Source: Paraspadella gotoi (lineage: Eukaryota; Animalia; Chaetognatha). Taken from it: a stretch of 64,000 nt of DNA. Positions 1-63,032 of this stretch are shown here, piece by piece. The stretch is from NCBI GenBank assembly GCA_051294375.1, contig CM119269.1, positions 12,990,790 through 13,054,789 of the forward strand. The letters run 5' to 3'. The translations under genes and the position numbers were made by a program. The notes below the pieces were generated by a model that was not told the origin of the DNA, did no database searches, and saw nothing but the letters and a program-made list of their open reading frames with translations. Every line of letters starts with the position of its first letter. The first letter of the stretch is position 1.

Positions 1-3000
1 AGTTATCTCAGAAAAGTGCAGAGTTCAAGAAGTACAAGGTTCTCTCCCTTTACCTACATTAGCCTCTACTTTTCACCCAATTGCAGATCTGGGGTACGCG
101 ATAGCGATCCCAGGATGCAGGCGCTAAGAAAGTCATTGGCGGAGACGGAAGGAGGTAAGGTCAGCGCCGCCGATCAGGCCGCGCGGGACGACGTCGCGAG
201 ACAGATGGAGGAACTGAGAAAGTAAGTATCGCTTAGAGAGATTGATAATGATCGCTTCGTCTCAACCGCTCATTGGTTGGTTTCTTTAAACCAATCAGAA
301 TGGGCGTCCGCGATAGCGATCCACGAATGCAGCAATTGCTGAAAGAGGACGAGCGATTGGCTGATAAGATGTTGGAAGAAGCGAAAAAAGTAAGTCGTTT
401 TTGACGTTGAATAATGAATATCTCTTTTTTCAACTTGAAATCGGTACAGTTTCCAGTTTTTTAAGTGATTGTGTTAAACGAATTAAAACTAGTTTGAGCA
501 AACAATGCCGGATCTGCCCACGATCATTAGCGTGCAGCTGATCACACAAGGTCTTAATAATTTATTAATTAATATATTAAATAATTAATTAATAAATTAA
601 ATAATTAATTAATTAATATTAATTTTTTTATTCTCGTTCAAATCTTTTTTCCACTTTGCCTCGACCACAAAACAACAATATCGATTACAAAATTATAAAT
701 TATAAAAATAATAAATTAATTAATTACAAAATAATTAATTAATGACTAATTTATTAATAATCTACGGACGGACGGACAACATTTTATTTTGCATAATTTA
801 TCATAATTCGATATTCTAAGATGATGTAAGTAACTTACCAACAAGATTTGGCGGTGGGACCGACGGACCGAAAAGGTGGATTATAGACCGGAATCTGCTG
901 TAAGCAGATCCGGCTAAATTATACCTGAGATTCTAACACGCATATCGCTCTTCCATGCCTCTAAAGCAATAAATCTTACGTGAAGGTAAAATCGTGATAA
1001 GTTGAAAATACCATATTCATAAGTCTAGAAAGATTACATACAGAAATTCTAAAAGTCAATTATGAACAACATACGCATCAGGTGAAACATTTAATGTTGT
1101 AAAAAAAAATTAATTTTGTTTTAATTTTCGCATAGCCTATATTTATATATAGTACTATCCTTATAAAATCGAAAAATTTCAAAATGGGTTTCTTAATTTT
1201 TGATTGCAGATGTGAATTCCTCGTCAAAGTTGATTTAGAAGAAAATATAAATCATTTTAAAAATTCTTTCACTTAAAGTGAGTTAAAAATTTAAAAAAAC
1301 TATTATTTTAATATATAAAAAATTAATTTCAGCTTTAAAAATAGCTTTTTCTAATTTTTGACCCACTTAATGAAGAATTTTTCAAAAAGAGTATATGTCT
1401 TTTTATCAAACTTTTTTATGACAAATCCAAATCTGCCTAAAAAATTTAGAAAAAACTGTTTTGAAATTTTAACATTTATGGTTTAGTACTATGTATTAAA
1501 ATATGGCTCTACTGCGCATACAAATTGTTAAAATTTATTATAAATTTTTTTTAGCATAAAATGTTCTATACAGTATAGGTGTTCGTCCTCACTTTTGAAT
1601 TTTAATTTAAAGTTAATAACTTTAGGAATTTTACTACGCCGTTAATATTCCATGATATGAATTAAATTAAGTAGTAAAACTCATGATAAGATCATCAAAA
1701 TTTTATATTCTGCTTTTTAGGCCTTAGTATTCTCCGAACCTTGATCAGTCATGTTCATGTCATTTGTCATCTTCAGACGGGACTCCGCGACGAAGATTCA
1801 AGCAATGAAAGATCTTCGAGTCGCCGTCGGGGAGAAAGCACGAACGTCAGGCCAAGCTTGACAAGGAGTTGGAATGAGAGAGAGATAGAGAGAGACAGAG
1901 AGAGAGAGGAGAGAGAGAGAGACAAGAGAAGAAGAGAGAGGAGAAGAGGAGTAGAGAAGAGAGAGGAGAGAGGGTCATGAGGAAAGGGATGAGAGATAGA
2001 GGGAGAGAGATGAAGCTGTAGGAGACGGTAGTATAGAGAGAGAGAGAAACCATGATGACAAAATGGATCAAATTAGCCTTTCTGTCTTTTTCTTTCTTCT
2101 CTTTATTTCTCTCCTCTCTTTTTTTTTCTCGCCACCAGGAGGCGCGCGCCCGCGGGGACGAGGCGGCCGTCAAGCGTCTCCTCGAGGAGAGCGGCCGCGG
2201 CGATGAGGCGATGACGCGACGAACCTCCGACATCAAACGCAGCGTCGCCGGCGCAGCAGACACGGCAGCGCTGGTTACCAAAACCTCGGCGCAGCTGGAA
2301 AAGGAATTGAAGTACGATGAAGCCATTGATTTAATTTTTAAATCATTTATTTTATTTGTTTATTTATTTATTAATTTATTTATATTTCGAATGCGACACC
2401 TTTTCTGGCGTTTAAGCTTACCACTTCCCTCTTTCAACTTTCCGCTTCCTCGTATCTCGCTTCCCATTTTTCAATCCCCTCACTTCCCCCCTTACCCAAT
2501 CCCCCAAATCCGTTTCCTCTTCCCCCGAATCCCCTCACTTCCCCTAACCAATCCCCCAAATCCGTCCCCCTTCCCCCGAATCCCCTCACTTCTCCCCTTA
2601 CCCAATCCCCCAAATCCATCCCCCCTTCCCCCGAATCCCTTCACTTTCCCCTTTACCCAATCCCCCAAATCCGTCCCCCCTTCCCCTGAATCCCCTCACT
2701 TCCCCCCTTACCCAATTCCGCCCCCTTCCCCTGAATCCCCTCACTTCCCCCTTACCCAATCCCCAAAATCGTCCCCCTTCCCCAAATCCCCTCACTTCTC
2801 CCCTACCGAATCCCCCAAATCCATCCCCCCTCCCCCAATCCCCTCACTTCCCCCCTTACCCAATTCCCCAAATCCGTCCCCCCTTCCCTCGAATCCCCTC
2901 ACTTCCCCCCTTACCCAATGCCCAAATCCATCCCCCTTCTCCCGAATCCCCACTTCCCCCCTTACCCAATTCCCCAAATCCGTCCCCCCGAATCCCCTCA

Positions 3001-3647
3001 CTTCCCCTAACCCAATCCCCCAAATCCATCCCCCCTTCCCCCGAATCCCCTCACTTCCCCCCTTTACCCAATCCCTCAAATCCGTCTCCCGTTCCCCCGA
3101 ATCCCCTCAATTCCCCCTTACCCAATCCCCCCTTCCCGAACCCTCCTCACTTCCCCGCTTCCCTTCCAGAGACCTCGGTCTCTCCGACGCGGAGATTCAA
3201 CGTCGTCTCGAGGAGAATCGAGAAAGAAGATCACAAGCGGAGGCGGACATGAGGGCGGCGAAGAAGGCGGGATCGATTCAGGTCCAACGTTTTACTCTAA
3301 TCTTTAACAACGACTGATTGTAATGAAATTATAATTTCACTAAACCGTTTCTTTAATCTCAAACACAACGAAACGAAAGAAAAATGAACAATGTCTACTA
3401 TTAACCTCTATATTTCCAGCCAGAACCCCAGAGTGTGTCAAAATATTTTGAAAATATATTAGCTCAAGATGAGTGTAAATTGAGATATTAAAACTAGATT
3501 ATGAACGAAAATCCTAGAAAGTGCGAATAAAAAAAATGACTGACCGACCATGGTTTGTTCAGATGGAAGACGCGTTGGCCAAGGGCGCGGCGGCGGGGAT
3601 GGACGACTCGAAGGCAGCGGCGGAGGTCTCCAAGGATTTGGCCAGGT

Positions 3648-5693: not shown

Positions 5694-8600
5694 CTTCTCT
5701 TCTTCTCTCTCTCTTCCCCACAAGGACGAGAGCCTCATCCTCGACGCAGAGATGAAGCTCATCCTCCTCGTCGCCTACAAACATAAGAAGTTGCCCTACA
5801 ACAAGCGAGAGCTCGAGGGTCACTTCAGGCGCCTGCACAAGAACGCCCTCATCGGGTTCACGGCGCCCGGGGACGCCACCGCCGACGCCAAGTCCGCCCT
5901 CGAGAGCGCCAAAGCTGCCAAGGCGGCGGCGACGAAGGACATTCAGGCGAAGATCGGAAACGCGGCGTCGCTTTCAATGGACGACCTGGAAAAGGTTGAA
6001 AGGGGGCGTGGCGGATGATTAGTAGAGTTATCCGAATTTGTAAAGCTATTGCGTTTTAAAATTATTCGGAGAATTACACAATGTCGAAGAATAGTTAAAA
6101 TTATTTCGTTAATTATTTAACGAGGCAAACCTTACCGACCCTCTAACGGGTCGATTGGCGAAAAAGCAAATTAGCATTGTTTCATTTACATTAGTTTTCT
6201 TTTGGATTATGATAATTAAAATTGATAATTATAGAAGTTTAAAAATAACAATAAAAAGTAATGAAACTTAAATGCTTTGAGGATATTTTCGGCCGTGCGC
6301 TCGTTATCATTAACTCGTTTCCTCTTTTAACTAGTCGTGTTAATATATTTTATAATAATATGAGTAATCGTTATTCCATTTCACGCCTTTATTCATGGAA
6401 TCCTCCAGGTCATCGAATCGTTCCACATGGAAGGCCTCAGCGCCGGCTCTGACGGAGACCTCTACAAAGCAGAGAAGGAGCTCCTGCAAAAGACCATCAA
6501 AACAGATCCTAATAAACTGAGGAAGAACCTCAGACTCGTCTCCTTCAACGGACTCAAGGTGAGTCATTGCTCTTTTGTTGATCCCGGTTCCATTCGTTTG
6601 AATGGGTTCATCGCTGCGTAGATGGCGCTGCCAGAATTGGATCAGAGCTACCCGGAAATCAACGAGGAGATGAAGGAGAAGGAGAGGTTGAAGGCCGAAT
6701 GCATCAAGGAGCTTCAGCGGGGAATTAAAGAAAAAAACTTGGACGTCCTGCAGGTCACTGCTGCTGCGGCTCCTGCAGATATTTGTCACGGTCATGTAGA
6801 GTTTGCCGTGTCGATTGCAGTGCAATCATCATTTGAGCAAGAAACTCGGTCTCGAAGAGAGCACGGATCCAATCGGCAACGCCAATAAAATGATTTTCGA
6901 GCTGCTGAACGGAGACGCCAAGGGCAAAGGTAGATCGAGGAAAATTTATGTTGTTGTTGTTGTTGTTGTTGATTCAATCCGATCGTCACAATACTCTACT
7001 ATTCAAATACATTACAAATTTCTAAGGGGGCGGGGACATGGATTTGTCGCGTTTCAGCAAAATGAGCATCGGAAGTTTGGAGCAATTGTTGGAATCGTTT
7101 AAGAAAAATGGTTTGGGAGACGATCACCCCGCAGTGAAGGTTCGTCCATTTTCGATTGACTTTTGTTTTTGGAGAACTATTGTTTTGTTATTACTTGCGA
7201 CAGGCGGCGAGAAAAGCTTTGGAAGATCAACGTCGCGCCAAAGAAGAAGCGAAAAAGGAACTGGAAAGAGCTATTGCATCGGGGGTATGAAAGAAAGAAA
7301 GAAAGAAAGAAATAAAGAAATAAAGAAAAAGAAAGAAAAAGAGAAAGACAAATAAAGTAAAATATTAAAACAGAACTGAGCACAAAAAGAATGTTATCCC
7401 CCCAACGCTTGCAAGGATGTCGACGCAATCAAAAAAGCGATGGACAAGCTGAAGACGACGGGCGGCTTGGACGACAACGAGACCAACATGTTGCTCGACG
7501 GGATGAAGACGTTGGAGAAGAATGTCAAAGAGGAGAGCAAAAGATCTCTGAGCGAGGGCATCGACAAGGCTGGAGCATGTCAGTGCTTTCCCGTTAATGC
7601 ACTTAAGCCTTAATTTAATCGATCCCTTACTTTGAAAAAAATTGAATCGTTTCTCTTTTGTGTGTTTATGTTTTAACTTCGTTATTATCTCTCATTTTAT
7701 ATTTCATTCAAAAGAAAAAAACCAAAGTCAGGTGCTATGGTGGACTAAAATCCACCAACCGTTCATCAGCGGCCATTGGTGCCGGAGGCAAGTCGTTCGC
7801 CTCCCGCCCCGGGGGTCCGGGGTTCTAGCCCGGTGGTCGTCTGGCAGTTTGAGAGGGACGGGGCGCTTGACCCGCCTGTGGCATGGTGTTGCGGCCTGGT
7901 CCGAGGCTCGGGACTGCTTATATTGAACGGTTCTGTCACTATAACTGTGAGAGAGTCTTGATTGAAAGCTTGCAGGGACCTGCTATGACATTATCTTGTA
8001 AGAGTGATGGAGGCGTTAAACCACCAAAGCCTGTCCAAAGTCAGGGGCAAGATAGCTTATTTATTAAATGAATGGATAATTTTTATATTGGTTGTACCAA
8101 TTTCATAAAATTTCAGCTCCTTGTATTTTGATGCTAGTGCGGAGTACAATAAGTATTCCCCGATCTAATACTTAAGGAGTGGTCTTTTTATACAATTGAA
8201 ACATTCTTTGAAATATTTTCCACTTCATTGATAGGGAAGCCAGGTACTCTGGGAGTGAATAAACGAGACTGTGAGAGAGTCTTGATTGAAAGCTTGCAGG
8301 GACCTGCTATGACATTATCTTGTAAGAGTGATGGAGGCCTTAAACCACCAAAGCCTGTCCAAAGTCAGGGCAAGATAGCTTATTTATTAAATGAATGGAT
8401 AATTTTTATATTGGTTGTACCAATTTCATAAAATTCAGCTCCTTGTATTTTGATGCTAGTGCGGAGTACAATAAGTATTCCCGATCTAATACTTAAGGGA
8501 GTGGTCTTTTCATACAATTGAAACATTCTTTGAAATATTTTCCACTTCATTGATAGGGAAGCCAGGTACTCTGGGAGTGAATAAACGAGACTGTGAGAGA

Positions 8601-11600
8601 GTCTTGATTGAAGCTTGCAGGGACCTGCTATGACATTATCTTGTAAGAGTGATGGAGGCCTTAAACCACCAAAGCCTGTCCAAAGTCAGGGGCAAGATAG
8701 CTTATTTATTAAATGAATGGATAATTTTTATATTGGTTGTACCAATTTCATAAAATTCAGCTCCTTGTATTTTGATGCTAGTGCGAGTACAATAAGTATT
8801 CCCCGATCTAATACTTAAGGGAGTGGTCTTTTCATACAATTGAAACATTCTTTGAAATATTTTCCACTTCATTGATAGGGAAGCCAGGTACTCTGGGAGT
8901 GAATAAACGAGACTGTGAGAGAGTCTTGATTGAAAGCTTGCAGGGACCTGCTATGACATTATCTTGTAAGAGTGATGGAGGCCTTAAACCACCAAAGCCT
9001 GTCCAAAGTCAGGGGCAAGATAGCTTATTTATTAAATGAATGGATAATTTTTATATTGGTTGTACCAATTTCAATAATAATAATTACTGTCTCTTCATTG
9101 GTGAGCCCGACTTCCGAACACAACAGCAACAACAAAACTCTCAGGCGACATGCCTCAACCTGGCGATGCACTTTCCGCCCACAACACATCAGGCGACATG
9201 CCTCAACTTGGTGACGAACTTTCCACAACAACAACAATTCACTGAAGAGACGCAACAGACTTCTCCCTACGGAGGGGGGGATGTATGGTGGACTAAAATC
9301 CACAACCCGTCATCAGCGGCCATTGGTGCCGGAGGCAAGTCGTTCGCCTCCCGGCCCGGGGGTCCGGGGTTCTAACCCGGTGGTCGTCTGGCAGTTGAGA
9401 GGGACGGGGCGCTTGACCTGCCTGTGGCATGGTGTTGCGGCCTGGTCCGAGGCTCGGGACTGCTTATATTGAACGGTTCTGTCACTATAACATAATAATA
9501 ATTACTGTCTCTTCAGTGCCGTATTTTTTGCATAACAAAAGTGAATCATTAAATAAAATAATAATGATAATTTTATTTTTAGATGATGATGATGATGATC
9601 CAGAATTAAAAGCTGTTATGAAAAAACGTTTAATAACACTCACGTTAAAAAATATCGAGAAAATTTTTAAACAAAGAAACAAAATCCTGAAATATAATCA
9701 CTTATTGATGCCCCACTTTGATCTCCTTTACAGCCGCTGGCAAAAAAGCCGTGGATGACCTGGAGAAATTCGGGCTCGACAAAGACGGGGAGGTTTTGAA
9801 GAGCGGCGGAGAGGCGGTCAAGGGGCAGCAGTCGAAGGAAGACGCGGCGCGGAAGCGGCTGGAAGATGCGCTGAGGAAGGGAAACGACAGGGAGATACTA
9901 GAGGCTTTGAAGGTCCGACTTATGTATTCCCGTGTAAAGTGTAAAGTATTCGGTACACAAAAACTAAGTACGATCATATTTTATCGGTATTCACTTCCAG
10001 GCTGCACGAGGTGTGCTTCCCGACGATGATCCGCTCATGAAGAGGGCCGAGCAGCACCTCGTCCAGGCGGCTCTCAAGGATGACAAGCTCATGAACGACG
10101 TTAGTTCATATTATAATTATTAACAAGAAGTTTCTATTGGTACAACCAATAAAAATTATCCATTCATTTAATAAATAAGCTATCTTGCCCCTGACTTTGG
10201 ACAGGCTTTGTGGTTTAAGGCCTCCATCACTCTTACAAGATAATATGACATAGCAGGTCCCTGCAAGTTTCAATCAAGACTTTTTCACAGCTCGTTTATT
10301 CACCTCCAGAGTACCTGGCTTCCCTATCAATGAAGTGGAAAATATTTCAAAGAATTTCAATTGTATAAAGAACCACTAACCTAAAACTAACACCTAGACC
10401 ATTAACACCTAAAAAATATATTAATGTATTAAGTGAAAATTCTCTCTTTCCTCTCTCTCGTCTTCTCTACATCTCTCTCTTTCTCTTCTCTCTCTCTCTC
10501 TTCTTCATCTTCTCTCTCCTCAGCTGAAAAACGTGATCGGACGCCAAGCTATGGAGGAGGCTATCGCGGATATGGAAAAGTCGGGGGCGGACCCGGCAAC
10601 GATCGCAAAGGCCAAAGCCAATTTGGCCGATATGGAGTCACGTGACGCCAAGCTTAAGAAGGAATTGGAGGTGAAGCGTGCCGGTCGACTTCGACAGCGC
10701 CGTTGACCTTTTTTATTTAAAAATTGTAAATCTGAAACGGAATTGTGAGCAATTGAAACATTTTTTGTTTTTTTTTATCTTTTGTTTTTGACGACAGGCG
10801 GCGCTCGAGTCGGGCGACCCGAAGAGAATACAGGCGGCGCTGGAGAAAGCCAAGGCCGCGGGCCTGATGAACGACGATCCGGCCCTGATTCAGAAGGCGG
10901 AACACTTTCTTCTCAGGCGCGTTGAGTGAAACTTAGCCTTTACTTACCTTTAGTTTGGGTTCTAAATCCAAATACTAAATTAGGATGAGCTATGTATTAA
11001 TTTATTTACCTCCAAGTGCATCCGTAATCCGTATTACAGGGCGGACCCCAAGGCCGCTAAGGAGAATCTGAAGAAATCCTCCGTGGAGGCGGCGGAGGGA
11101 TACATGACAGGCAAACCTGGCGCGACGAAGGAAGTGGCCGCGCTCAAGGAGAGAGATGAAATGCTGAAGAAGAAGTTGGAACAGGCTTTGGCCTCGGGTG
11201 CGAAGCGCTGTGTTGGCACACATTTCTATGAATTATTTTCTATAATTTTACTCTTAATTTTAAAAATTTATATTGATATCAGGGAGAGAGTCGCTGATCC
11301 GTCAAGCCTTGCTCGAGTGTAAAGAGGCCGGACTCACGGACAAAGACTTGGGCGGACTCATGACAAAGGCTGAGAAGCAACTCGTGAAAGGTCCGCACAA
11401 CAAATCGGACAAGGTCATGGCCACCTTCGAACTTATGTCCGAAGACGCGCTGGCGAAAAAAATCCAAGAGTTGAAGGAATCGGGTAATTTTGGGTTTCTT
11501 GTCGTGACACGAACTTAATAGTTAATAAGACGCTTTTTGGTCTTACTATTCATAGATTTATTTTTTTTTTAAATAAATTTAAAAATAAAAAGGAATTCCG

Positions 11601-21919: not shown

Positions 21920-24900
21920 ATGAGTGGCGTTGGCCTGGCGGTAATCACTGCCGCCCTAACCCCAACTTTGCCTGGTCGTCTTCGGCCTTTTTTCAACGCA
22001 GTCGCCGTCGAATGCTCCGCCCTCTATCTTCACTTGACACCGGCGGTCGGCAGCGCCGCCTACGTTGACGCCCCTTTGGCACCGGGATTCCGGTTGGCGA
22101 CGCTTCCGGTGGACGATTTAGCACGTCGCGTCATCGGAGGAATTTACGGAGACGCTATTCGGGTGGCGCCTATGGTTGACGTCAGGTGACATGAGGCATA
22201 AGTCTCTGATCGCACCCATCAACTCTTCATATCTTATTCTCCCAACAGAATCATACTATCGAACTTCGGCAAAGATCCTCTCTGGCGTCCCGCCCCTCAT
22301 CGCCTGTCTCGCCGATTGACCCACATATTCACAGATCATGACGACTCGTCGCTCGTCGCCACTTACGTCCATGGCTACTTTTCTAGTCTCCACTCCGATA
22401 AGGACCACCTTCATGTCAGGGATTTGGTCATAGATCCAGACAAGACGACGTCGCAGGCTCCCGCGAACCCCGTTCCAACTTTTGATCACGTCGTTCTTGG
22501 CGGAACTTTTGATCGACTTCACGCTGGACATAAAATGCTATTAAGTACATCTGCACTCGTCGCGAATAAGGTCGGAATAATCGATGTAATATTGTTTCGA
22601 TTTCGAGTGACTTACGAGGTTATGAATGACTTACCTTATATAATATTCGCGTTTATCTATTACATTTTTTCTTATGTATTCCGGCAGAGCGTCACAGTTG
22701 GAGTAACAGATGGAGAGATGAACCGAAAGAAAACGCTTTCCGAACTCCTCGAACCCACGAAACATCGGGTGGAGACGATTCGCGATTTCTTGCTCGAGTC
22801 GAAACCAAATTTGGAGGTGATAGCCGTTCCCATCCTCGACGCCTTCGGTCCTTCAATCGTCGACGAGCGACTTCAAGGAATCGTCGTTTCTCAGGTTTAC
22901 ATACAGGGGTGGGACCCTATATAGAGACAAGGCTTAACGTCCTGCCCTGTCTGAATGATTTTAGATACAATAATATTATAAGTGGCAAAAGTTTTTTCTG
23001 GCTTTTTACTTCCATATACAATTAAAAAAAATAAATTTTTAAGCAACTACAAGGCGTTGTGAATGTTTTCAAAACATTTAGTCGTTTTTATGCGCGCGCA
23101 TTGCATTGCATACGATAAAAGCCTGATTTTAAGCTTTTCAACACTATCAAAATTTTTTTTCTGGTAAGTAAAACAAAATTTTATGAGGATTACAACAAAT
23201 ATGCTTAAATTGTCAAATACATCATGTATTTCTTACCTTTTTGACGCTTTTATTATGCATTCAGAAAGCTTACATGATTCATTTAATTACCTGACAATAT
23301 TGTTAATAAACTTTTTGATAAAAGTAAGTTTTAATAAAAATTAAACGATAACAGAAACGTACCCAAACCTTACCTGCTTATTTAAAAATTTTTTAAACCA
23401 AAATACCATGTACACTAAGGCGTAGTGAAAGTTACATACGAAAATTATAAAAGTCAATTTTGAACAACATACCATCAGTGAACATTAATTTATAAAAAAA
23501 ATTAATTTTATGTTTTTTAATTTTCGCAGTAGGCTATATTTATATATAGTACTATTCTTATAAAATCAAAAAATTTTAAAATAAGCTTATCTTAATTTTG
23601 ATTGCAGATTTGAATTCCTCGTCAAAAGTTGATAAAAGAAAATATAAATCATTTTTAAAAATTCTTTCATTAAGTGAGTTAAAAATTAAAAAACTATATT
23701 TAATATATAAAAAGTTAATTTTCAGTTTAAAATATAGCTTTTTCTAATTTTTGACCTACTTAATGAAGGAATTTTTCAAAAAGAGTTATATTTCTTTTTA
23801 TCAACTTTTTATGACGAATCCAAATCTTCAAAAAAATCTTTAAAAAAACTGTTTTGAAATTTTAACATTTATTGGTTTAGTACTAGTATAAATATGGCCT
23901 ACTGCGTGAATTGTAAAATTTATTATAAATTTTTTTATTACATAAATGTTTATTAGTATAATGTTGTTCGTTCCTCATTTTTAGAATTTTAATTAAAGTT
24001 AAATTTAGAAATTTTACTACGCCTTAGTGAGGACAGTTATTAAATGTTTTGTTTACGTTTTATCGAAACAAACAAATTTCCTTTATTATGTCTCCTCTCT
24101 CTTTTTTCTTTTAATTATATGTAGCTCTCTCTCTCTCTTTTCCCCAGGCTGATTCATCGATATCGGGGAAATAAACGAGTCTGCAGCTGGCTCTGCAGGG
24201 GCTTTCTTTCTTTTTCTCTCTTTTCTCCTGCTGCTTCTGCTGCTGCCGCCTTTTGATTTATTTCTTTTTTTCTGGCTGCCGCTGCTGATTCGTCCGAAAA
24301 CGATTTGGCTTCTCTCTCTCTCTCTTTCTATCTCTCTTTCTCCCTCTCTCTCTTTCTTTCTTTTTTTTTCTCACTGCTGATCAGTTTATTTGACAATAAA
24401 AAAGTTGTTTTTTTTCAGAAACTTTAATTTTCCTCCGTACTTTATTATTTTTTTGATTTATATATAAAACATAGTTTTCCTTTATAAAATTTGATTTTTT
24501 GAGTGTCAAAGTTTGTCATGAGTTCATATTTTTTTTATACAATTGCGACGATTTTTAACTTTGTCTCGATATAGGGTCCCACCCCTGTAAAATAGGAAAA
24601 TAATTTTATTGACTAATAAAAATGACTTAGAAATTAAGTCGAAATATATGGCAAAAAATTTAAATTTTTTTGTTTCTTATGCACAGTTTCTCCATAGTGA
24701 AAATAAGTATTTAAATAAGAAAATAATACTTTTAAGAAACCCGAATCAAGTAATCTAAACTGCTACAATACGCAAAGTTTGAAAAACACAATCTCATTTG
24801 AAATTAATCACAGGAGACTTCGAGTGGAGGCGACGCCGTAAATTTAAAGCGTAAAGAGGCTGGCCTCTCTATATTAGAAATAGTCACTGTGCCTTTGCTC

Positions 24901-26813
24901 GAGGAGAATGACTTTGAAGATGGCGTCCGTGAGATCACTCATGAGGACAAGATGAGCAGCACCGCCAAGAGGATTGCCGCTCTGGGTAATTTTAAAGCTT
25001 TTATTCTAGCCTCGCTGATATTTATTTCTTAATTATCTATCTTTAGTATGACTTGTCAGTCAGTCTTACGTGTATTTAAAACTCTTATTTACAATACTAT
25101 GAATCTCACCGTTGGCTTTAGGGGCTTCCGACCCTCAGGGGCACCGCCTGCCACTGGCACGGTTACCCTAGGACGGTCCCGCTTTGCCAACGCAGTGGAA
25201 GTCGTTAGGACTCTGGAATATGGATGGAACGTAACACTTGGGATGGTGCGTTCCTTCTCTGAGCATTGGCTGAATGTAGCTTGATGTAAGGCGGTGTGAA
25301 TTTACCACCACAACATATAATTTTTGATTCGTTATATCAATAGGTTTTTAATAACATAATGACCTAATTGAAACTGATAAATTGTAATTTTCTATACTTT
25401 GTACATTGTACAATGTACAGTAAGGCGTAGTGAAAGTTACATACGAAAATTCTAAAAATCAATTATGAATAACATACCATCAGTGAACATTAATTTGTAA
25501 AAAAAATTAATTATATGTTTTTTAATTTTTGCAGTAGGCTATATTTATATATAGTACTATCCTTATAAAATCGAAAAATTTTAAAATAGTCTTATCTTAA
25601 TTTTGATTGCAGATGTGAATTCCTCGTCAAAAGTTAATAAAAGAAAATATAAATCATTTTTAAAAATTCTTTCATTAAGTAGGTTAAAAATTAAAAAAAC
25701 TATATTTAATATATAAAAAAATAATTTTCAGCTTAAAATATAGCTTTTTTTAATTTTTGACCTACTTAATGAAAGAATTTTTCAAAAAGAGTTATATTTC
25801 TTTTTATCAACTTTTTATGACGAATCCAAATCTTCAAAAAAATCTTTAAAAAAACTGTTTTGAAATTTTAACATTTATTGGTTTAGTACTAGTATAAATA
25901 TGGCCTACTGCGTGAATTATAAAATTTATTATAAATTTTTTTATTACATAAATGTTTATTAGTATAATATTGTTCGTTCCTTATTTTTAGAATTTTAATT
26001 AAAGTTAAATTTAGAAATTTTACTACGCCTTAATGTACAGGCACTTTGTTACGATCTCCGAAACGGCGAACTCCGAACAATTTCAAACCGGCCTACGTGA
26101 TCGGGCTGACTGGAGGGATCGCGAGTGGAAAGACGGGAGTTGCTCGAAGACTAGAACGGTTTGGGGCCAAACGGATTGACTGCGACTTATTGGGTCACGC
26201 GGCTTACAAGAAGGTGGTAGGATCGTTTATGGTTTAGCTAAAGAATACTTACAATTTTATGATGGACTTTTTAATTTCTCGCCTATTTTTTCATTTTGAA
26301 TTTTTCATCTACAAACAGGGAACGCGTTGCTTCGATCAAGTTGTATCCCGTTTCGGCGTCGACGTCGTCGACTCCACATCCGGGGAGATCGATCGTCGCG
26401 CGCTAGGCGCCCGCGTCTTCGGCGACGCGTCTCGTCGCGCCGATCTCAACGCCATCGTGTGGCCGGCCATCCGTGAAGCGGTTGAGAAGGAGATTCGATC
26501 GGAAGAAGAACGAGAGAAAACTGGTCGTCGATCGGTGGTCGTCGTCGAGGCGGCCGTCCTTCTCGAGGCCTCGTGGAACGATCTCGTCGACGAGGTCTGG
26601 GTCTGCGTCGTTCCGCCTTCGGAAGCCGTCAAACGTGTCGTCGACCGCAACGGCCTCTCCGAAGCTGACGCCCGTTCGCGCGTCGAGGCGCAACTGTCCA
26701 ACTTGGAACGCGTCGCCTCCGCCAACGTCGTCGTCTGCACGCTATGGGACCCGGCCGTGACGGAGCGTCAATGCGAGAAGGCGTGGAAACTGCTTCTCGA
26801 CCGGATTGACTGA
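21920..26813 (+). CDS. COASY: Bifunctional coenzyme A synthase (PPAT + dephospho-CoA kinase), multi-exon
   Basis: VVLGGTFDRLHAGHK (HxGH), KMSST motif, YVIGLTGGIASGKT P-loop, EAAVLLEA.W. Confidence 0.96.
22904..24587. mobile_element. Non-autonomous Tc1/mariner-like element (1.68 kb) in COASY intron
   Basis: 27-bp TIRs CAGGGGTGGGACCCTATAT(A/C)GAGACAA, flanked by TA at 22902-22903 and 24588-24589; no transposase ORF. Confidence 0.8.
23416..24026 (+). mobile_element. hAT-like MITE nested in the Tc1-like element
   Basis: TIRs TAAGGCGTAGTGAAA / TTTTACTACGCCTTA; near-identical to 25421-26032. Confidence 0.85.
25110..25192 (-). ncRNA. Type-P5 twister ribozyme with P3, family C, antisense in a COASY intron
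   Basis: Minus strand: CGUUGGC(P5) AAA GCGG(P2) GA CCG(T1) UCCUAGGG(P1) UAA CCGU(P2) GCC AGUGGCA-GGCGG-UGCCCCU(P3) G AGGG-UCGGAAGC-CCCU(P4/L4) AAA GCCAACG(P5). Confidence 0.9.
25421..26032 (+). mobile_element. hAT-like MITE with 8-bp TSD ATGTACAG
   Basis: 15-bp TIRs and a perfect 8-bp duplication at 25413-25420 and 26033-26040. Confidence 0.9.
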
Positions 26814-35185: not shown

Positions 35186-38100
35186 ATGGGCGACGATCCC
35201 CACATCGTCGTCGGCGCCGCCGAACTTCGGCAGCAGCTGCTGCATGTTCGCACTGAGCTCGACGCGGAGCGCGCTGCGGCCACCGAGTTTCGACGCCGGG
35301 TCACCCACGGGGACAAGGAGAAGCTTACCCTCGTCTCGAACCACAATGAGGAAATGGCGTCGTTGCGTCACCGCGCGGCGGCGGCGGAAGCGGCGCTGGA
35401 AAACTGTAACGCCGCAAAGTGCGAGACGGAGTGTGAATTGTTGGCGGCCGTCAAACGCGTTGCTGGATTGGCTAAAACAATCGAGGATAAGGAAGTTAGT
35501 CTTTTTTGGGAGTCGGACTTTTTCTTTTGTTAGTTTTTGGTTTTTTAAATTGGAATTTTTGTCAGGCTTCTCACGCAGAAGAACGCGAGTCCTTTCGCTC
35601 TCAAGTTGAAGATTTGCGTCGACGTCTTTCCAAGTCTGAGGATGAAGGCGCGAAATTCACTTTTGCCGCCGAAAAGAAAGAGTCGGCCCTCTCTGGTGCG
35701 ATACTCGCCAAGGAGCAGGAGTTGGATCGTGTTCGCAAGGAGCTCGAGCTCACGCAGGTGTTCAGTCTTAACTAAAAACGTGCAGATAATCGTTTACGTA
35801 CGTATTTATGAAAATTATGTGTACTACGATACGACTAAGACTTCAAACAAATTTAGAAAGTCAAATATATTTTACATATTAAATTTATAGTTTCATTTAA
35901 TATAGTTATATTTTGTGTATTTTACTGTTTAATTCCTCCGTTTTGAATTTCCCAGATCGCGAAATCGGAATTGGAGAAACTGTCGGACACGAGAGAGAAG
36001 CAGATCGTTGAGTTGGAGCGGAAGGCCGCCGAGTTAGATTCGGAATTAGGAAGACGAACGGACGAGGCCAAGCTGCAGAGGTCCGAGTCAGATTGGATGC
36101 TGCAGAAAGAGAAGCAAACCAAGCAGGTTTGTCAGTTGTGCATGGAGTGATCTTTATCTTTTGTTTACCAGTTTTTGTTCTATTGCAATATTTTAATTCA
36201 TCGTAGGAACTCGAAGCGTTGGTGGAAAAGGCTAAAGGCCTTGAGGCAAACGTCGAATCGGAACGCGCGGCTCATCTCGAAACGAAGTTCAACTCTGAGA
36301 TCGTGCAGCTTCGCCTTCGCGACGTGGAGGCAGCGCTCGAGGATGCGAAAGCCTCCAGCGCCTCCAAAGACGCCGCGTTGGCTGATCTTCGCGCTAAACT
36401 CGATGCCGCCGGCGATTCTCTGCGCGAGGAGAAGAAATCGGGCTTCAAGTCGACGAACCGATTGAAGGCGACGTCGGCGGAACTGGCTGACGCTCAGAGG
36501 CACGTCTCTCAGCAGGAACAACTCGTCGATGAACTCTCCAAGGAGATCGACGCTCACCAGAAACACTTCGCCGTTTTGAAGGAGGAGCTGGAGAAAACGA
36601 AAGCCAATCAGCGTCGCTTGGAAGGCAATTACTCCACCTGGCTCAAAGACCTCGAGATCACCGTCTACAACTATTGGCACACCCTTAAACAACGACAGTT
36701 TCACGAGGATTATCCCCCTTCCCCGCCCTCTTCGTCATCTCCTTCGCCCAAGTCGCTCGTCGAGGGTCTTAAAGTTCTTCTCGGTGAATACCTCGTTCAC
36801 CTTCAAGATTCAAAGGCATCTTCCGAGAACATGTTTCGTAAGGACTCGAAAATCACGGAGCTGCAACAGACGCTAGGTCGTCTCGAGTACGAACTCGAGC
36901 AGCGGAGTCGCAAGATCGTAGAAGCAGCTGCCGAAGCTGATCGCCGCGTCGATGAGCGGGAAGCCCTCGCCGCGTCCCTCGAGGCCGAAAGAGCAGAGAG
37001 AGCGAGGATCGAGGGTGACAATGGAGACATTCTCGAGGCTCGAAGAGTCGCCGACGAGGAGAAGGTGGCATTTCTCGGCGCCACTCTCGCCAAACTCTCG
37101 GCGATGATACCGAATTCAACCTCCTTGTCGGATTTTAACGACGAAGCCCCCGAGGCTGGCAGACTATTAGAAAGCGTCGCCACTGTGGATAAGTCTTGGA
37201 ATCGATTGACAGCGGTGACGACGGAATACGTGGCAAAGGTGACCTCTTTCGGCCTAATTTGTTACAGATTGAAAGCTTTGTTTTGAAAAATGAACTGAAG
37301 TAATATAAAAATTAATTCTATTTAATAGATAAACTATCTTGCCCCTTATTTTTGGCAAGCTACTATGGATTAAGGCCTCAATTCCTCTTACTTATTAATA
37401 TAACTACGTACGTATTATATTTTCACGCAGTTGGGACTCGTCCTGAAGGCACTCAAAAAGAAAGCGCGAGTCTGTGAAGACGAAATGAGAAACGCCGAGG
37501 AGGGGCGAAAACAAATGGCCGAGGCTCAAGAGGAGACGTTGCATCAAATGGCCGAAGCCGCCGCTGCAGTCGAAGCCAAAGCTCTTGAAGAGAAGCGTCA
37601 GTTGGAAGACCATTTTGGGGAGGCTCTGCAAAAGGTGCCTTGAAGAAAAAGGAGCTTGAGAATGTTTTTTGTATTTTCAAGAATTTCCCATCGACTCTAG
37701 GTCCACGATCGCGCGAAACTAAGTGACGCCGAAGCGCAAGACGCTCTCGATCGACTCCGGACGGCAGAGGCTTCTCTTCAAAAATGCTCCGCCGAGATCC
37801 GCCTGTTGAAGAGCGAATCCAATCGCCTGCTAACGGATCGCACCAGTTTGACGGCCGCTTGCGCTCTCCTTGCCGGCGTTCTTCTTTCTCAAACGACGCG
37901 CAGATGCGTGGAGTCGCGCCATCGTTTAGCCGAAGAGATGAACGCTCAGGCGACGACTTTTCGACGCCACTGCATAGTCTTGGTCGAAACGCTCAGTTCT
38001 GAATTCCCGTCGGGCGACGAAGACGAAACCTTGCCCAAGATCCGTCGGGGTTTCGGCGCTCTCCTCGCATTTCGTCGCGCCGCCATCGTTATAATCGCCG

Positions 38101-40077: not shown

Positions 40078-43000
40078 ATGTGTTCAATTCGTAAGATTAT
40101 AACGCTGCTTCCAAACTCTTTAACATTGGACCGAAATTTAACTTTGGCTGCCAGGACGTTATGGCCGCTGGAAAGGAGCTTATTTCGCAGCTCCAGCGGC
40201 TCTGCAGCACCAGCCGTCGTCGACCCTCCCCCACGTCCGAAAGAAACTCACGAATTCCCTTTAGAACGAATTCGGAACTTTAGCATCATCGCTCACGTGG
40301 ACCATGGAAAAAGCACCCTGGCCGACCGCATCCTCGAAAGTGTCGGCGCAATTAAAAAACCTACACAGGGCAAGAACGAGCAGGTCCTAGACAAACTGCA
40401 GGTGGAACGAGAGCGAGGAATCACCGTTAAGTCACAGACGGTGAGCTTTCGTTACCAGCACGAGGGCCTCACTTATCAGATTAATCTTATAGACACTCCC
40501 GGGCACGCCGACTTTAACTACGAGGTTTCGCGGTCGCTAGCCGCCTGTCAGGGCTGCATCCTTTTAGTAGACGCTAATTCTGGCATCCAGGCGCAAACCA
40601 GTGAGTTTTACTCGTGTATTTAATCACAAATATATACATATTTAATTCTCATATCGGTCCGCCTCGCCACGAAATGCCCTTTTGTTCGCGCTAGTCGATA
40701 GATCACGCGTTTATCAGAGTCAGAAAAACGAACAAAATAACATCGAAAAATGAAAAAAAGAAAATCCAGGGGGAAGCCGTCACGTGACCGGCCTCGACCA
40801 ATGGGAGCCCGGCATCCACCGAAGCCGGTTCTCTCCCTCATCCGGGAAACTGAGATCATCAATTCTTTTTTCGCGCTCATCTAGTTCGGTTGTATCCTTT
40901 CTGATTTCGCGTTTTTTCTTGACTTTTTCACGATTTTCTCGTATATCTACGTTCGAAACCCGCTCATTAGAAGTCAAGCAGAGACGAACGTTCGGACAGG
41001 AAGTCTGACAGCCGAAAACGTTCGGACATGTCTCTAAACGTAGAGAGGGACTGGAGATCCCTCGGGGGCTGAGAGGTCCAAGGGAGACCGAGCGGTCTCG
41101 CCCCCGCCGCCACCTGCCCCACCGACACCGCCTTCTCCCCCTTTTACCGGGTTTTCGGCAGCCCGATTCCGTCGGTTTTGGGGACTCGGCCCTACCAACC
41201 GACAATTTCCGTTGCCCGGCCGAGCGGTGGGGCTTCGTCCGAGGCGCCCTCTCTCGCTGCTCTCGGACCAAGTGGCGGCCGGTCTGGTCATCCCCACTGC
41301 CGGATGACGAGACCAGAGGACTGGAGTCTGTCCTTCGACGATGGTTTCGCACTGAACAGCTTTAGGAAGGATTTCGACGATTTTCGCCGCGAGTCTCAGC
41401 GGCGTTTCGACGCTTTGGGGCGGTGAGTTTTTTCCCGCCAGATGGCGTAGTGGGGGTTTTAGCTCGTTTTTCAAAGCCTCGCCTCCCTCTTTTGTTTCTC
41501 CTTTATTTCTTTCTTTCTTTTTTCGAATTATTCGATTTTGGATTTTTAGAATTTTTATTTCGTCTGATTCGATCGAAATATTTTTGTTGAAATAACCGCT
41601 TTCCTCCGCCTCTTGGCATGGGGCATTTCGTGGCGAGGCGGACCGATATGAGAATTTTTAATTCCTTTATGGAATATTAATTCTATATCGGTCCGCCTCG
41701 CCACGATCCCACCGTCCGCCCCTTTTTGTCTCCTACCATGTTTTTTCGTGGCTTTGGCGTGGCTTAGGGAAAGGGGGTTGGGGAGAAGGGAGGGGGGGGG
41801 TTCGGGAGTTTTTCCGTTTAATTCTCGCGCTAATTTGTTTACCGCTTCGTTTTTTTAATGTGACGATTCATATCGGTCCGGTTTTTCTCTCCACTACGCT
41901 TCGCCTCGTTTGACGAGTCTCGAATTCCTTCCATGCTGTTCCGACTCCAGTAGGCGGCCCCCTCTCAGATCGGGCGCCCGCCTCGGACCGTCACAGGTCT
42001 CGCCTCTACCCAAGCGTCATCGATCCCACACAGTGCCGGATCCGGACGCCAAGTACTCCTCCGATTCGGCGGAGGAGGGAGAAGTTTCGTCTTCGGATGA
42101 CGACTCGGCGGTTTTCGACGCTTCCTGCCCACGAGCAGGTCGCGCCGGTTCCAGGTTCGTACATGTGGCGTTCTCTTCGCTGCGTTGGGGAAGGGGTCTT
42201 CCTCACGGCCAACTGGAACTCGCTGGGACGCCCGGCGATCGGCAGTATACGCCACTGGATCGACGTCGCTTCTCCTCCGGAGTTCACCGCTCCGACGCGG
42301 ACACGTGCCTCTCCGCTCAATTCGAGTCGGCGTTTTCCAAGGGAATAAGCGGCTACTCTCCGCTCCTTTTCACGTGCGATGCAGGAGAACGGCGCTACGC
42401 GCATGCCATCCTTACAGTTGTCGATGAGCTGCGCGGAATCAAGGAGGCTCTCCGTTCCGGCTCGTCCAGAAATGAGGTCAGCGCTAGCGTTGAGCCCTTG
42501 CCGCCCCGCTTCGCGACGCGGCTCTTATTCAAGCGGCGTCCCTCAACCTTTCAGTCGGCGAGATCCGCCGCCAAGTCCCGCTGTGGCGCCGCAGGATCTC
42601 CGCGCCACGCTTTCTCGCTCCGCGCCCACCGCATCTTCCTTTTTTGGTATTCAGGAAGCGCAGGTGGAGTCGGCGCTCAACTCGACGCTTATACAAAACA
42701 TCGCTCGCGCCTAACCCGCTGCCGACAAGCGCCCTCGTTTCCGCTCGTAGTCTTCCTTCAAGCGCAAGTGGACCAAGAAGTCTGTTCCCCGCAAGAAGTC
42801 GGGAGACGGGAAGGGCCGGGACTCGCATCCCGGCGAATGACTCGAAACGCCTCCCTCGCGGTCGCCGCCTCGTCCGACCGCCCAGGTTTTAGGCCTGGAT
42901 CCGCCCATGGACTCGAGTCTCGACACGGACCTTTCCACGCCGGCGCTTCTTCCGGAAGTCCCCGTCGGAGGTCGGCTTCGTCTCCTTCAACCCTTTTGGA

Positions 43001-46000
43001 CGACGTTCGTTGGCGAGACGTCGCCCATTCTCGATAACTTCTCGGGATTCCGCCTCGAGGGGGCGAAGCAGTTTCCAGCACGCTTCCATCTTCCCTCGGA
43101 CGAGACACCGTCCTTTGGGGACCGAGACGCCTTGGTCGACGCAGAGATTGCGGCGGCTTTGGGGGAGGACGCCATCGAGGTAGTCCCGGTTTCTCCGGGT
43201 TTCTTTTCCATGTTTTTCCTCGTTACGAAGAAAGATGGAGGCTGGCGCCCGATTTTGAACTTTAAAAAGCTCAACTCTCGTTTCCTTTCGCCGCCTTATT
43301 TCCGGATGGAAGGAGCCCCGGACGTACGAAGGATGTTTCGACGAGGCGATTGGGGTGCCTCGGTAGACCTTCGAGATGCTTCTCCTTCTCCCGATCCACG
43401 AGGATCATCGGAAATTTTGCCGCTTCTTTTGGAAGGGCCGCATCTTCCAGTACAGAGTCCTTCCATTCGACCTCTCGACGGGTCCTTGGCTTTTCACCAA
43501 GACGACGAGGCTCTTAGTGCAGTGGCTCCGCCCACAGGGGATTCGATGTCTTTTTTTATTTAGACGACATCTTGATCCTGGTTTCCTCGGCGGACGATTG
43601 TCGACGAGCCACTCGGAAGGCGGTGTGGCTACTCAAGGAGGCGGGGTTCATCATCCACCTTCAGAAGTCGAGCCTGTCTCCCTCTCAGAGTTTCGATTTT
43701 CTCGGTTTGGTTTGGGACAGCCTCTCCCACTCCATCGCGCTCCCGGAGACGAAAATTACGGCTCTTCACTCTCTCGCGGAGAATCTTTTGCCAACGACCG
43801 CACCACGTGCTCGTCAGTGCCTTCAGCTTTTAGGCCTTTCGACGGCGGCGTCCATGGCAGTACCGCTGCTGCGCTGCCGGCCCTCGAGGATTCAACGAGA
43901 CGTCAATCGTGTCTACAGGTCGGAGAAGGATCTCGACCGTGTTGTTCCTCTCCACTCGCCGGCGATGGAGGAGCTGCGGTGGATCGCAGCCCTCTCTCCA
44001 GACCAGTGCTTCGCTCTGATCGACGACCTCCTCCCGGAGGTCTGCACGCTGGAGGGGACGACGGATGCTTCGTCGCAGGGATGAGGGCTTCTCCATCAGG
44101 GCCAACTGTCGGGGAGAACCTGGTCGACTGCGGATGCCCCTCTCCTTATCAATGTGAGGGAGTTCACAGTTCTGAGGATCTTCCTCCAACGATTCGGAGC
44201 TTCCTTCCACGGCGCGTCCATCCTTTGGAAGACGGACAGCCTCGTCTCTCTCACCTGCCTTCGTCGGGGCTGCAGCAGGAGTCCGTCTCTCTTCGGAGGA
44301 GAATCTCATCACGGCCGCAGCGTCGAGGGGCCGCAAGGTGGCGGACTGGAAACTCCTTCCGAGAGTTTTCCACCAGATGGTCGACATTTTTGGTCTCCCC
44401 AGCATCGATCTTTTCGCGACTCCCTGGTCGGCTCAAGTTCCACGTTTTTTCGCCTGGGAGGCGACGCTGGAGGCGGAGGGGATAGACGCCTTGGCGTAAC
44501 GCTGGGTCTTCGACCTGGCCTATCTCTTCCTCCCCCTCCTCTGCTGATGATGGTGATCCGCATGTGGGAGAAGGCGAGGGGCACCTTCCTCCTGATCACC
44601 CCGTTTTGGCCGGCTCAGAAGTGGTTCCAGAGCCTCCTCCTTCGGATTCTGGATGCGAGGCGCTTCCGGCGCCGAAGATCCTCGTTGTCGACCTCGTGTC
44701 CGGGCTTCCGCCACCGCAAGCGGATCGCTTCAGGCTCGTCGTCTGGAGGATTTTAGGCGGTGCCACAATCTCTCCGACATCGACGACTCCACCTTCTCTG
44801 TCATCGTCGACAGCCGGAGAGGCTCTACCAGAGAGCGCTACGCCAGAGCTTGGAGCTCCTTCTGCGACTTCCTTCAGGATAGAGAGGTTCGAGGATCTCA
44901 AGCCTCTCTAGAGGATGTTCTACGATATCTCGGTTTTCTGTGCGAGAAGGGCCTCTCGTACAGCAGATCAACCTTCACAGATCGGCCATCTCAGCTCTCT
45001 CCCCCCCTGGCGGGAGCGCCGGTTGGAGAGCATCTTTGGTCCGGCGCCTTCTCAAGGAGTTTTCGAGAGACGCCCTCCCTCACGTCGGACTTTCCCCACT
45101 TGGAATGCGGCCTCGGTTTTACGCATTCTCGACTCGGGCGCCACTTCCGATCGCGCCGAGGGATCTTCTACGGCACGCTCGCTCTTTCTCGTCGCTTTAG
45201 CGTCGCTCGTCGCCCTTCAGAGATCTCTCTCTTCGTTGCGACGCGGGTATCTTTCCTTAGCGGCAGATCACGTTCGTCTGGTTCCATCGACCTCTCAAGA
45301 CGGACAGGGTTGGACACATGGGTCCGGCGTTCCGTCTCGATTCGCTGCCGCTCTCAGATGTTGCCCGGTTCAGGCGCTGCGCAATTGGCTCTCTTCGTTC
45401 GGAATTGGCGCCGCCGCACGATTTTCTTTTCTGCACCCCGCGCCGCCTTTTCGTCAACTCTCGACGCAGCGTTTCGCCTCCATTCTCAAGGAGCTCTTTT
45501 TGGAGGCAGATGTTTCTGCGCCCCCGGGGTCGACACGCGCTATGGCGGTTTCAGAAGCCTTCGCTCGCGGCGTGGATCTCGGCGTCATCTAGCGCGCGGA
45601 GATTGGTCTGGAGCGCAGACCTTCTTCCTTTCTACTGCAGGGACGTCGCGTGGGCGCCCCTCCGGGACCTTCTAGGGACAATTGATGATCTCAGTTTCCC
45701 GGATGAGGGAGAGACCGGCTTCGGTGGATGCCGGGCTCCCATTGGTCGAGGGCCGGTCACGTGACGGCTTCCCCCTGGATTTTCTTTTTTTCATTTTTCG
45801 ATTTTTTTTTGTTCGTTTTTTCTGACCTGATAAACGCGCGATCTATCGACTAGCGCGAACAAAAGGGCATTTCGTGGCGAGGCGGACGATATAGAATTAA
45901 TATTTCCATAAAGGAATTAAAAATTCTTAACATAATGTAGATTGTTTTCCATTTCTTTTTTTTTTTCTGCGCTTTCCCCACCTCCGCCAGTGAACAACTT

Positions 46001-58371: not shown

Positions 58372-59023
58372 TAAAGGTTTCCAACAAAGAATTGAGTAAG
58401 GACAGTGATCAGTTTTAATCCCAAAGAAATAAGTCGAGACATGTCGAAACGAACGCGTAGATTTTTAAAAATCCTTAGCCATTCTAATATTTTTCCCCAT
58501 TTATATTTGTTATATATTATGAAATTGGTACAACCAATATAAAAATTATCCATTCATTTAATAAATAAGCTATCTTGCCCCTGACTTTGGACAGGCTTTG
58601 GTGGTTTAAGGCCGCCATCACTCTTACAAGATAATGACATAGCAGGTCCCTGCAAGCTTTCAATCAAGACTCTCTCACAGTCTCGTTTATTCACTCCCAG
58701 AGTACCTGGCTTCCCTATCAATGAAGTGGAAAATATTTCAAAGAATGTTTCAATTGTATGAAAAGACCACTCCTTAAGTATTAGATCGGGGAATACTTAT
58801 TGTACTCCGCACTAGCATCATTATTATTATATATATCATTATTATATATGTTTGTTATAAAATATTCGATTTCATTATTTTTTTTCTTTCGTGCAGACGC
58901 GACGTGAACGATTCGCTGAAGTCGTCCTCGACCGGTCAGACGGGAATCAACGGCTGCGTCTCTTTGTCCGCGGGCGGCGACGGTGACTCCCTGGTCGTCG
59001 CTTCCGGAGACATGATGAGTTGA
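52724..59023 (+). CDS. XPO7: Exportin-7, multi-exon
   Basis: [68 protein letters not shown]-terminal DMMS. Confidence 0.97.
58236..58276 (-). ncRNA. Minimal type-I hammerhead ribozyme (Penelope-type, palindromic stem III)
   Basis: Minus strand GCG-CUGAUGA-AG-GCUC-GUAUUGU-GAGC-A-GAAA-CAUG-UC^-UGC. Confidence 0.75.
58520..58820 (-). mobile_element. Family A dispersed monomer with twister (58571-58633) in the last XPO7 intron
   Basis: Reverse complement of the array unit, flanked by TTA on both sides; T1 strand is UGGC instead of UGGA. Confidence 0.88.
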
Positions 59024-59589
59024 CCCACGTCCCTTCCGCTTAGCCCCTTCCGCCCCCGCTCCCCCGTCTCTCCACCTCTCCGCCTTCTCATCCCGTCGAG
59101 GTTTTCGATCGCCGCTCCTCTTCACCCAAATACGATTGTCTTTCGTCCATGAGGAAAATAAAAAATAAACAAAAAAAAAAAAACTTTGATCAACGGAGAC
59201 GATTAGTCGATTAGCGTTAGTCGGTTAATGAACGAATGAATAAAAATGATTTTATAGCTTGTTTTTTTTTTTTTTTTTTTTGTTTTTTTTTTTTTTTTTT
59301 TTTTTTTAGTTTTAGTCCAATTTTTCCATTCCATTTTTAAATTCAAAATTACGACGTATCGAGGCGCGCCTGATGCCTAGAGATCGACATGAGAAATATA
59401 AACGAGTCGCCCTAAAAAATTTAAAATAAGATAGTGGTAATTGGAGCCATGAGTACCTGAAATGGCTACTAGAGTGTTCGATCATTCAAATAAATTTTTT
59501 GTTCTTGAGTGCTCCAATGATATTTAGATGTGAGATAGTATGATTAACTAGTACAAAAAATATTTCGTTCATATTATCTCGGGAACAGA

Positions 59590-59990
59590 ATAGCAAAATA
59601 TAATATATTTGTAGTAATATCCTTATAAAATAGTAAATTTTAAAAATAATTTTTATAAAACTTTTAATAAAGATTCAGATTCTTCATAAAAAGTTGAATC
59701 AAAAATATAAAACATGTTATCAAAAATTCTGTCATCTTCAATGTTTAAAATAAGAAAAAAGGTAAAAATTCCTGACTTTTTTATTCTCTGTAGTAGAAAC
59801 TTATATATGTTAAAACGTTTTAGTCATTTTTTGTGATCTAAACATTAAAATATCATATAACATATTTTATAAAAGTTTCTTAGTTTTTTACCGCGAATCC
59901 AAATCAGTTCTTAAAAATAAAAAAAAATTATTTTGAAATTTAACGATTTTATAAGGATATTACTACATAAATAATTGAATTTGCTATACT
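59590..59990. mobile_element. AT-rich foldback MITE related to the hAT-like MITE interior
   Basis: GTAGTAATATCCTTATAAAAT... mirrored by ...ATTTTATAAGGATATTACTAC. Confidence 0.55.
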
Positions 59991-62820: not shown

Positions 62821-63032
62821 GGCGTAGTAAAATTTCTAAATTTAACTTTTAATTAAAATTCTAAAAGTGAGGAAGAACACATTATACTAATGAACATTTA
62901 TGTAATAAAAAAATTTATAATAAAAGTTACAATTTACGCAGTACGCCCTATTTATACTAGTACTAAACCAATAAATTTTAAAATGTCAAAACAGTTTTTT
63001 CTAAGATTTTTATGCAGATTTGGATTCGTCAT
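62818..63032 (-). mobile_element. Truncated inverted hAT-like MITE copy
   Basis: Starts TAAGGCGTAGTAAAATTTCTAAATTT, the reverse complement of the MITE right end. Confidence 0.85.

Follow-up and report, generated by a model that had tools for sequence, protein, structure and literature searches.

Introduction

ADAR-type editing can be recorded by reverse transcription, as in the A-to-G hypermutated proviruses of retroviruses (RAV-1, avian leukosis virus); these are exogenous, whereas the repeat described here, family B, is short, non-coding and endogenous. For human LINE-1, ADAR-edited pseudogene insertions have been reported, with edited RNA in 3 of 235 experimental insertions (PMC11702581). 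There, too, clustered A-to-I changes were fixed by retrotransposition, but in that account, as far as its accessible part goes, the edits lay in inverted Alus of captured mRNAs after induction of L1, whereas in family B the element itself appears to have been edited and its ribozyme core struck; and unlike that experimental system, the family B scar stands in a natural animal genome and was found in more than one sample. The G>A scars left by APOBEC, established in vertebrate LTR retroelements, are likewise strand-biased clusters of a single substitution type, in an individual copy relative to its family consensus (PMC4866542, PMC2873906), but they arise from deamination of cDNA, whereas the changes in family B are A>G, a type that points to RNA editing before copying. 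In the accessible portion of PMC4866542, APOBEC scars are absent from 19 invertebrates, and the published scans for edited retroelements centre on G-to-A changes and leave invertebrates bare; mismatches of other types are tabulated in the supplements of that study, which may affect how novel our case is.

As an element, family B is best compared with the metazoan non-LTR retrozymes, which are likewise small, non-autonomous ribozyme repeats (150-300 bp); those described carry type I hammerheads in tandem (PMC7761336), whereas the copies of family B, each with a twister-like domain, lie dispersed, begin at a fixed point and end in a tail. The word "editing" is absent from the accessible text of that review. 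The twisters of Schistosoma Perere-3 and RTE share with family B a weak or minimal P1 within a non-LTR retroelement (PMC8501958, PMC7761336), but these sources place them at the 5' end and in the P1-type arrangement, whereas the domain of family B has the P5 permutation and an internal position, 133 nt behind the 5' end. Among the papers listed by a literature search, made mostly among those open without subscription, none concerned a germ-line-fixed ADAR scar in a ribozyme element. Since the general phenomenon has precedents, the surprise is moderate. Here we describe two family B copies that share a dense cluster of A-to-G changes, and we consider it probable that ADAR editing of a family B RNA before reverse transcription was its cause.

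Data and methods

The window is the whole stretch of DNA analysed, 64 kb long. It is gene-rich eukaryotic DNA with introns, and the best full-coverage matches of its exportin-7 exon are to molluscs (85%), with annelids and arthropods close behind, so that the host is an animal. Public contigs from four of nine runs of the same animal (X3, X4, X5 and X9) were aligned to positions 7700-7970 at 80% likeness, giving 5774, 4634, 1352 and 408 aligned contigs in the four runs, with family A letters at the end of that stretch included. The depths given below are shares of contig depth per run, not copy numbers. We guess X9 to be RNA; none of the runs is recorded as such. Family B was assigned to the twisters by eye, through comparison with the Twister-P5 layout of Rfam (RF02684). 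A 23-nt family B motif gave no match in the genome contigs and viral contigs searched; its lone metagenome match (L001) is GC-rich and unrelated beyond the motif, and was dismissed as chance.

Two copies of a dispersed repeat

Family B and the main parts of its unit are placed as follows.

7736 to 7945, forward strand: family B copy 1, found by self-BLAST, 96.7% identical to copy 2, lacking the 3' tail
9284 to 9518, forward strand: family B copy 2, which carries the 3' tail of the family; self-BLAST match 9284-9491, right end of the copy approximate
7757 to 7765 with 7924 to 7932, forward strand: 9-bp closing stem, all Watson-Crick and unchanged
7769 to 7840, forward strand: left branched arm from folding, closed by an acceptor-like stem and holding six of the changes

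In the public contigs the family B unit begins at a fixed 5' position, 7736, behind AT-rich and unrelated upstream flanks (loose-end agreement 0.41-0.47), and beyond 7941 the contigs enter a common tail resembling that of copy 2 (agreement 0.68-0.75 in all four runs). A fixed 5' start, a shared 3' tail and heterogeneous flanks mark family B as SINE-like and dispersed, with a unit of about 235 nt, and it is an abundant, high-copy repeat. Its left arm begins 33 nt inside the unit and carries, by eye, a B-box-like motif near 7821-7830; ARAGORN called no tRNA gene over this arm, and the whole unit with its tail folds no better than shuffled sequences (z -1.38).

The two window copies differ at seven aligned columns, some of which are probably sequencing errors. 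They had been described in the first-pass annotation as tandem and as the product of a probably circular RNA reverse-transcribed more than once around, a picture that the layout does not support: the copies stand 1338 nt apart, with family A array and spacer in between, and the family has a fixed 5' start and a SINE-like 3' tail. Rolling-circle copying of one family B circle was likewise rejected, the copies being separated rather than head-to-tail.

The sequence around and between the copies is itself composite.

7722 to 7732, forward strand: 11-nt scrap of the family A twister, identical, seen in the sequence just before copy 1
7944 to 9073, forward strand: family A array, in which some 3.5 units of 322-324 nt stand head-to-tail and each unit gives a Twister-P5 match
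10136 to 10377, 58514 to 58820 and 37302 to 37391, reverse strand: further family A copies
9074 to 9100, forward strand: second copy of the B-type tail, which stands also at 9492 to 9518
9074 to 9283, forward strand: the tail at 9074-9100, followed by a spacer unique in the window (200 nt; 9084-9283)

Copy 1 and the family A array overlap by 2 nt (7944-7945). The Twister-P5 matches of family A score 22.6-25.8 bits, below the gathering score of 37.6, and both its T1 and T2 pairs are compensated; its P1 is a 6-nt palindrome, which suggests cleavage as a dimer. With its tandem layout, family A fits the arrangement of described retrozymes (PMC7761336, as far as accessible), carries a twister instead of a hammerhead, and looks like a twister-type retrozyme.

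The same tail ends the family A array and family B copy 2, and a short piece of the spacer (9240-9251) is similar to it in reverse complement. This shared tail may mark the autonomous partner, which from the resemblance may be Penelope-like. The spacer (9084-9283) contains two internal repeats of about 60 nt and has a G-rich end just ahead of copy 2. Along the locus the order is thus family A scrap, tailless family B, family A array, tail, spacer and tailed family B, an order that points to template switching between small RNAs in the course of a single insertion; in one X4 contig, too, family A letters run into the start of family B. That both family B copies share all of the changes described below indicates one origin for them, and the second copy may equally well stem from a later duplication of DNA. 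The search for a target-site duplication around the composite gave nothing convincing, the best candidate being 7 nt and AT-rich.

The A-to-G cluster

Positions at which the window copies depart from the family majority are given below in window coordinates.

7795 to 7910, forward strand, copy 1, left part: G at 7795, 7806, 7811, 7812 and 7813
7795 to 7910, forward strand, copy 1, right part: G at 7851, 7869, 7880, 7881, 7891, 7893, 7899 and 7905
9342 to 9456, forward strand, copy 2: G at all 14 places where the family has A

By family contig depth 14 places are majority A; copy 2 reads G at every one of them, and copy 1 reads G at 13 and C at 7807. Across the four runs, the share of depth with A is 0.97-1.00 at 7795 and at the cleavage-site position 7869, and it is similarly high at the P3 places (7880, 0.94-0.99; 7881, 0.92-0.97; 7891, 0.96-0.98; 7893, 0.96-1.00). 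It is 0.82-0.97 at 7899, 0.81-0.93 at 7905 and 0.89-0.95 at 7806, and more variable at 7811 (0.67-0.99), 7813 (0.71-0.91), 7807 (0.53-0.96) and 7812 (0.85-0.92 in three runs, 0.37 in X9); at 7851 it is split with a gap at 7850 through an alignment shift. Most genomic copies of family B therefore carry A and not the Gs, the comparison by which the first-pass annotation had proposed to check its claim of hyper-editing. A fifteenth A>G change is likely behind 7909, where the family contigs have A, the contig matching copy 2 has G and the window has no base, both window copies having probably lost one G there.

The changes are confined to about 115 nt on the ribozyme strand. Among the differences listed, 14 of the 14 majority substitutions of copy 2 relative to the family are A>G, no other majority substitution is common to both copies, and no family-T place reads C in both; the weakest peaks listed stand at about 4.5%, and a further hidden majority change is unlikely. 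The family is itself variable between C and T at 7837, 7840 and 7884 and between A and G at 7843 (A in 34-50% of depth), and when the three C/T places are counted against the pattern the tally is 14 of 17 (p=3e-8). Fourteen changes within 110 nt among the 44 As of the unit are clustered at p ~1e-4. Inside the cluster, whose bounds were chosen post hoc, 15 of 23 As (65%) are changed, which is at or above the ceiling of 50-60% published for editing in duplexes longer than about 50 bp (PMC3113232, in its accessible part).

The tract is correspondingly poor in A. Its scarcity had been noted before as some 12 in about 140 nt, and the count is 13 A, with 62 G, in the 150 nt of 7769-7918, and 14 A in the 149 nt of 9317-9465, against about 30% A in the flanks of the unit; no other 150-nt region of the window, on either strand, is as poor in A and as rich in G. 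That the surviving As mostly follow G or C was right for the window letters (11 of 13), but two of those preceding Gs are themselves changes, and on family letters the figure is 9 of 13. In each of the six other repeat pairs of the window several types of substitution occur together. The family A array has no A>G bias relative to the other copies of family A in the window: the array has no transitions against the 58 kb copy, and against the 10 kb copy four sites with G in the array and one with A.

The G form is rare in the family, with non-A depth at 7893 of 118.5 in 30462 (X4), 164.7 in 11730 (X3), 92.9 in 2370 (X5) and 0 in 4117 (X9). A 122-nt contig from another sample and study (X5 record 22) has the letters of copy 2 plus one G over 7814-7934, and differs from copy 1 by two other letters and two gaps. 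Since a contig from another study reproduces copy 2, the Gs are real DNA and not an assembly error.

A twister-like domain and the predicted effect of the changes

The elements of the domain, parsed by eye, are these.

7843 to 7918, forward strand: Twister-P5-like domain of copy 1, from the by-eye parse, a pair table and folding
9390 to 9464, forward strand: Twister-P5-like domain of copy 2, with G at the cleavage-site position 9415
7843-48 with 7913-18: P5 of copy 1
7854-56 with 7871-73: P2
7857: putative general base G
7859-61 with 7901-03: T1
7862-67: minimal P1
7868^7869: predicted cut
7874-75 with 7906-07: T2
7876-83 with 7887-94: P3
7895-99 with 7908-11: P4

In this parse the twister core elements follow one another in order (GA, T1, P1, UAA, P2, GC, P4 with an 8-nt L4, and two pseudoknots). 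Pairing on family letters is Watson-Crick throughout in T1 (3/3), T2 (2/2), P3 (8/8) and P4 (5/5); P2 has two pairs of three, but three of three in copy 2, and P1 is minimal. The Rfam covariance models, scanned over the G-bearing copies, gave no match in the window at gathering score and none over 7843-7918 at E<=10.

The changes strike the cleavage-site A of the twister, one A of L4 and both strands of P3 and P4. Twisters cleave at U-A within UAA (PMC8501958), and the adenine on the 3' side of the cleavage site has been proposed as general acid (PMC6154101), both as given in the accessible parts of these papers; in the window copies this adenine is replaced by G at 7869 and 9415, whereas the family has A in 97-100% of its depth. 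The UGA and AGG letters noted in the first-pass annotation are indeed present at 7868-7870 and 7904-7906, in both copies, and the cluster is common to 7843-7918 and 9390-9464, as had been claimed. The same annotation had read the many G-U pairs of the stems as edits, which holds for all four in P3 and two in P4, each A-U in the family majority, but not for two acceptor-like pairs, which are the state of the family (no majority A is listed at 7769 or 7772, and the partners 7837 and 7840 are C/T), nor for the P5 pair at 7843, a family polymorphism. CpG decay as an origin of G-U pairs fits the acceptor-like stem, but for the 14 places it was rejected.

In folding without pseudoknots, pair probabilities on family letters are 0.79 for P3, 0.93 for P4 and 0.95 for P5, and on edited letters 0.0, 0.0 and 0.95; the edited letters form a different rod (MFE -38.3 kcal/mol, against -17.7 for the twister layout), and P2 is recovered with neither letter set. 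That family letters fold P3, P4 and P5 and edited letters lose P3 and P4 suggests that A is the working state. The ribozyme of both window copies is thus predicted to be inactivated; our literature search found no measured effect of A-to-G at a twister cleavage site.

The predicted cut at 7868-7869 lies 133 nt inside family B, and the part upstream of it is kept in most copies, which suggests that the transposed RNA is usually uncut or rejoined.

Origin of the cluster

The properties of ADAR that bear on this cluster are that a 5' G is disfavoured across metazoans and that young repeats are the chief targets, both as stated in the accessible part of PMC9989829. Over 7769-7918 the fraction of As changed is 4 of 5 after U, 5 of 8 after A, 5 of 9 after C and 1 of 6 after G, an order that matches that of ADAR. 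The tests give Fisher p=0.056 and rank p=0.03 over this span, 0.10 and 0.10 over the tight cluster (1 of 4 changed after G), and 0.17 and 0.17 over the whole unit; across the spans tried, Fisher p runs from 0.06 to 0.19 and rank p from 0.03 to 0.17, with one of three rank tests below 0.05. The neighbour bias is therefore weak, though in the right direction, and the proposal of hyper-editing by ADAR made before is likely: substitution type, strand and density fit it, and the 5' G signal stands at p 0.03-0.19.

This weakness is what an origin in copying or DNA-level errors, such as a burst of misincorporation opposite A by the reverse transcriptase or an error-prone polymerase at A:T within one tract, would lead one to see, and such an origin could also account for the sharp edges of the cluster inside the unit, beyond which the flanking stems are unaltered. 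We nevertheless regard it as unlikely: errors of this kind would have had to be confined to a single one of the twelve types of substitution and to a single strand, to change some two thirds of the As of the tract and to follow a neighbour order that matches ADAR, and deamination of the cDNA strand would be expected to appear on the element strand as T>C rather than as A>G. An artefact of sequencing or assembly is highly improbable. Single-base indels do separate near-identical units of the window, and both family B copies have probably lost the G behind 7909, but the pattern is common to the two copies and a contig from another sample and study matches copy 2 over 7814-7934.

Inheritance is the remaining possibility, and in its simplest form, a natural and common U^G twister variant as raised in the first-pass annotation, it is rejected by the family contig depth, most genomic copies lacking the Gs. 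A minor subfamily, whether a U^G variant or an older lineage whose CpG Gs have since decayed in the master, would have supplied the Gs wholly or in part, and this we consider quite unlikely. In its favour is a full-length single-locus contig found in all four runs (X3 record 1, X4 record 10, X5 record 18, X9 record 27; window 7736-7937), which by depth subtraction, clearest in X9 and X5, appears to carry non-A at 7795, 7806, 7899 and 7905 and G behind 7909, and so to account for the non-A letters at these places; moreover, 4 of the 14 Gs stand in CpG context, and the family is A/G polymorphic at 7843 and, in X9, at 7812. At 7811 and 7893, however, that contig reads A, and it departs from the window at 30 other letters; it may represent a second, independent edit or else an older lineage. 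An old lineage should also differ from the young family in other ways, but among the differences listed A>G is the only kind at majority depth that the two window copies have in common. Non-A depth at 7893 is 0-4% by run, and true CpG places decay by about 5-11% in X4, not by the 67-99% that the Gs would need; the Gs are also predicted to break the fold.

Under ADAR editing, one family B RNA would have been hyper-edited while part of a long duplex, and reverse transcription would afterwards have brought it into the DNA of the germ line. Because the changes reach unpaired bases of the core and either strand of short helices, this RNA would have been paired with an antisense copy, and changes on both strands of the 8-bp helix together with those in the unpaired core argue for a long intermolecular duplex over the monomer fold. 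No inverted family B copy that could serve as duplex partner lies in the 64-kb window; the abundance of the family makes antisense partners plausible. The reverse transcriptase of an autonomous partner would have read inosine as G, and the strand bearing A>G would be the strand of the transposed RNA. A single edited molecule would have given rise to both copies, either through template switching in a composite insertion that includes family A or through a DNA duplication afterwards. Transcripts of either copy would be expected not to self-cleave, since the general-acid adenine is G and P3 and P4 are predicted to misfold.

RNA edits are normally not inherited, and a scar of this kind would show that inosine-rich RNA can still finish germ-line retrotransposition; it would also imply that such elements form long duplexes in vivo. 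Thousands of unedited siblings provide a built-in control for testing ADAR restriction of self-cleaving retroelements. We suggest, tentatively, that such editing has entered the germ line of this animal repeatedly by way of family B, that several independent family B copies carry overlapping, ribozyme-destroying A-to-G clusters, and that ADAR acts as a heritable inactivator of self-cleaving retroelements. Recurrent scars, if real, would be the RNA-level counterpart of APOBEC scars, each dating and mapping a past RNA duplex.

Other elements in the window

A GUF1/LepA-like gene is interrupted by an element (40642-45900) that has inverted repeats at its ends and, at 42.8-45.6 kb, frames resembling a reverse transcriptase and a recombinase; its motifs suggest that it may be DIRS-like. 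Self-complementary foldback repeats of about 630 nt occur at 1005-1640, 23400-24029, 25409-26048, 59584-59993 and 62818-63032, and a C-rich minisatellite with units of about 53-55 nt lies in a gene region at 2470-3170.
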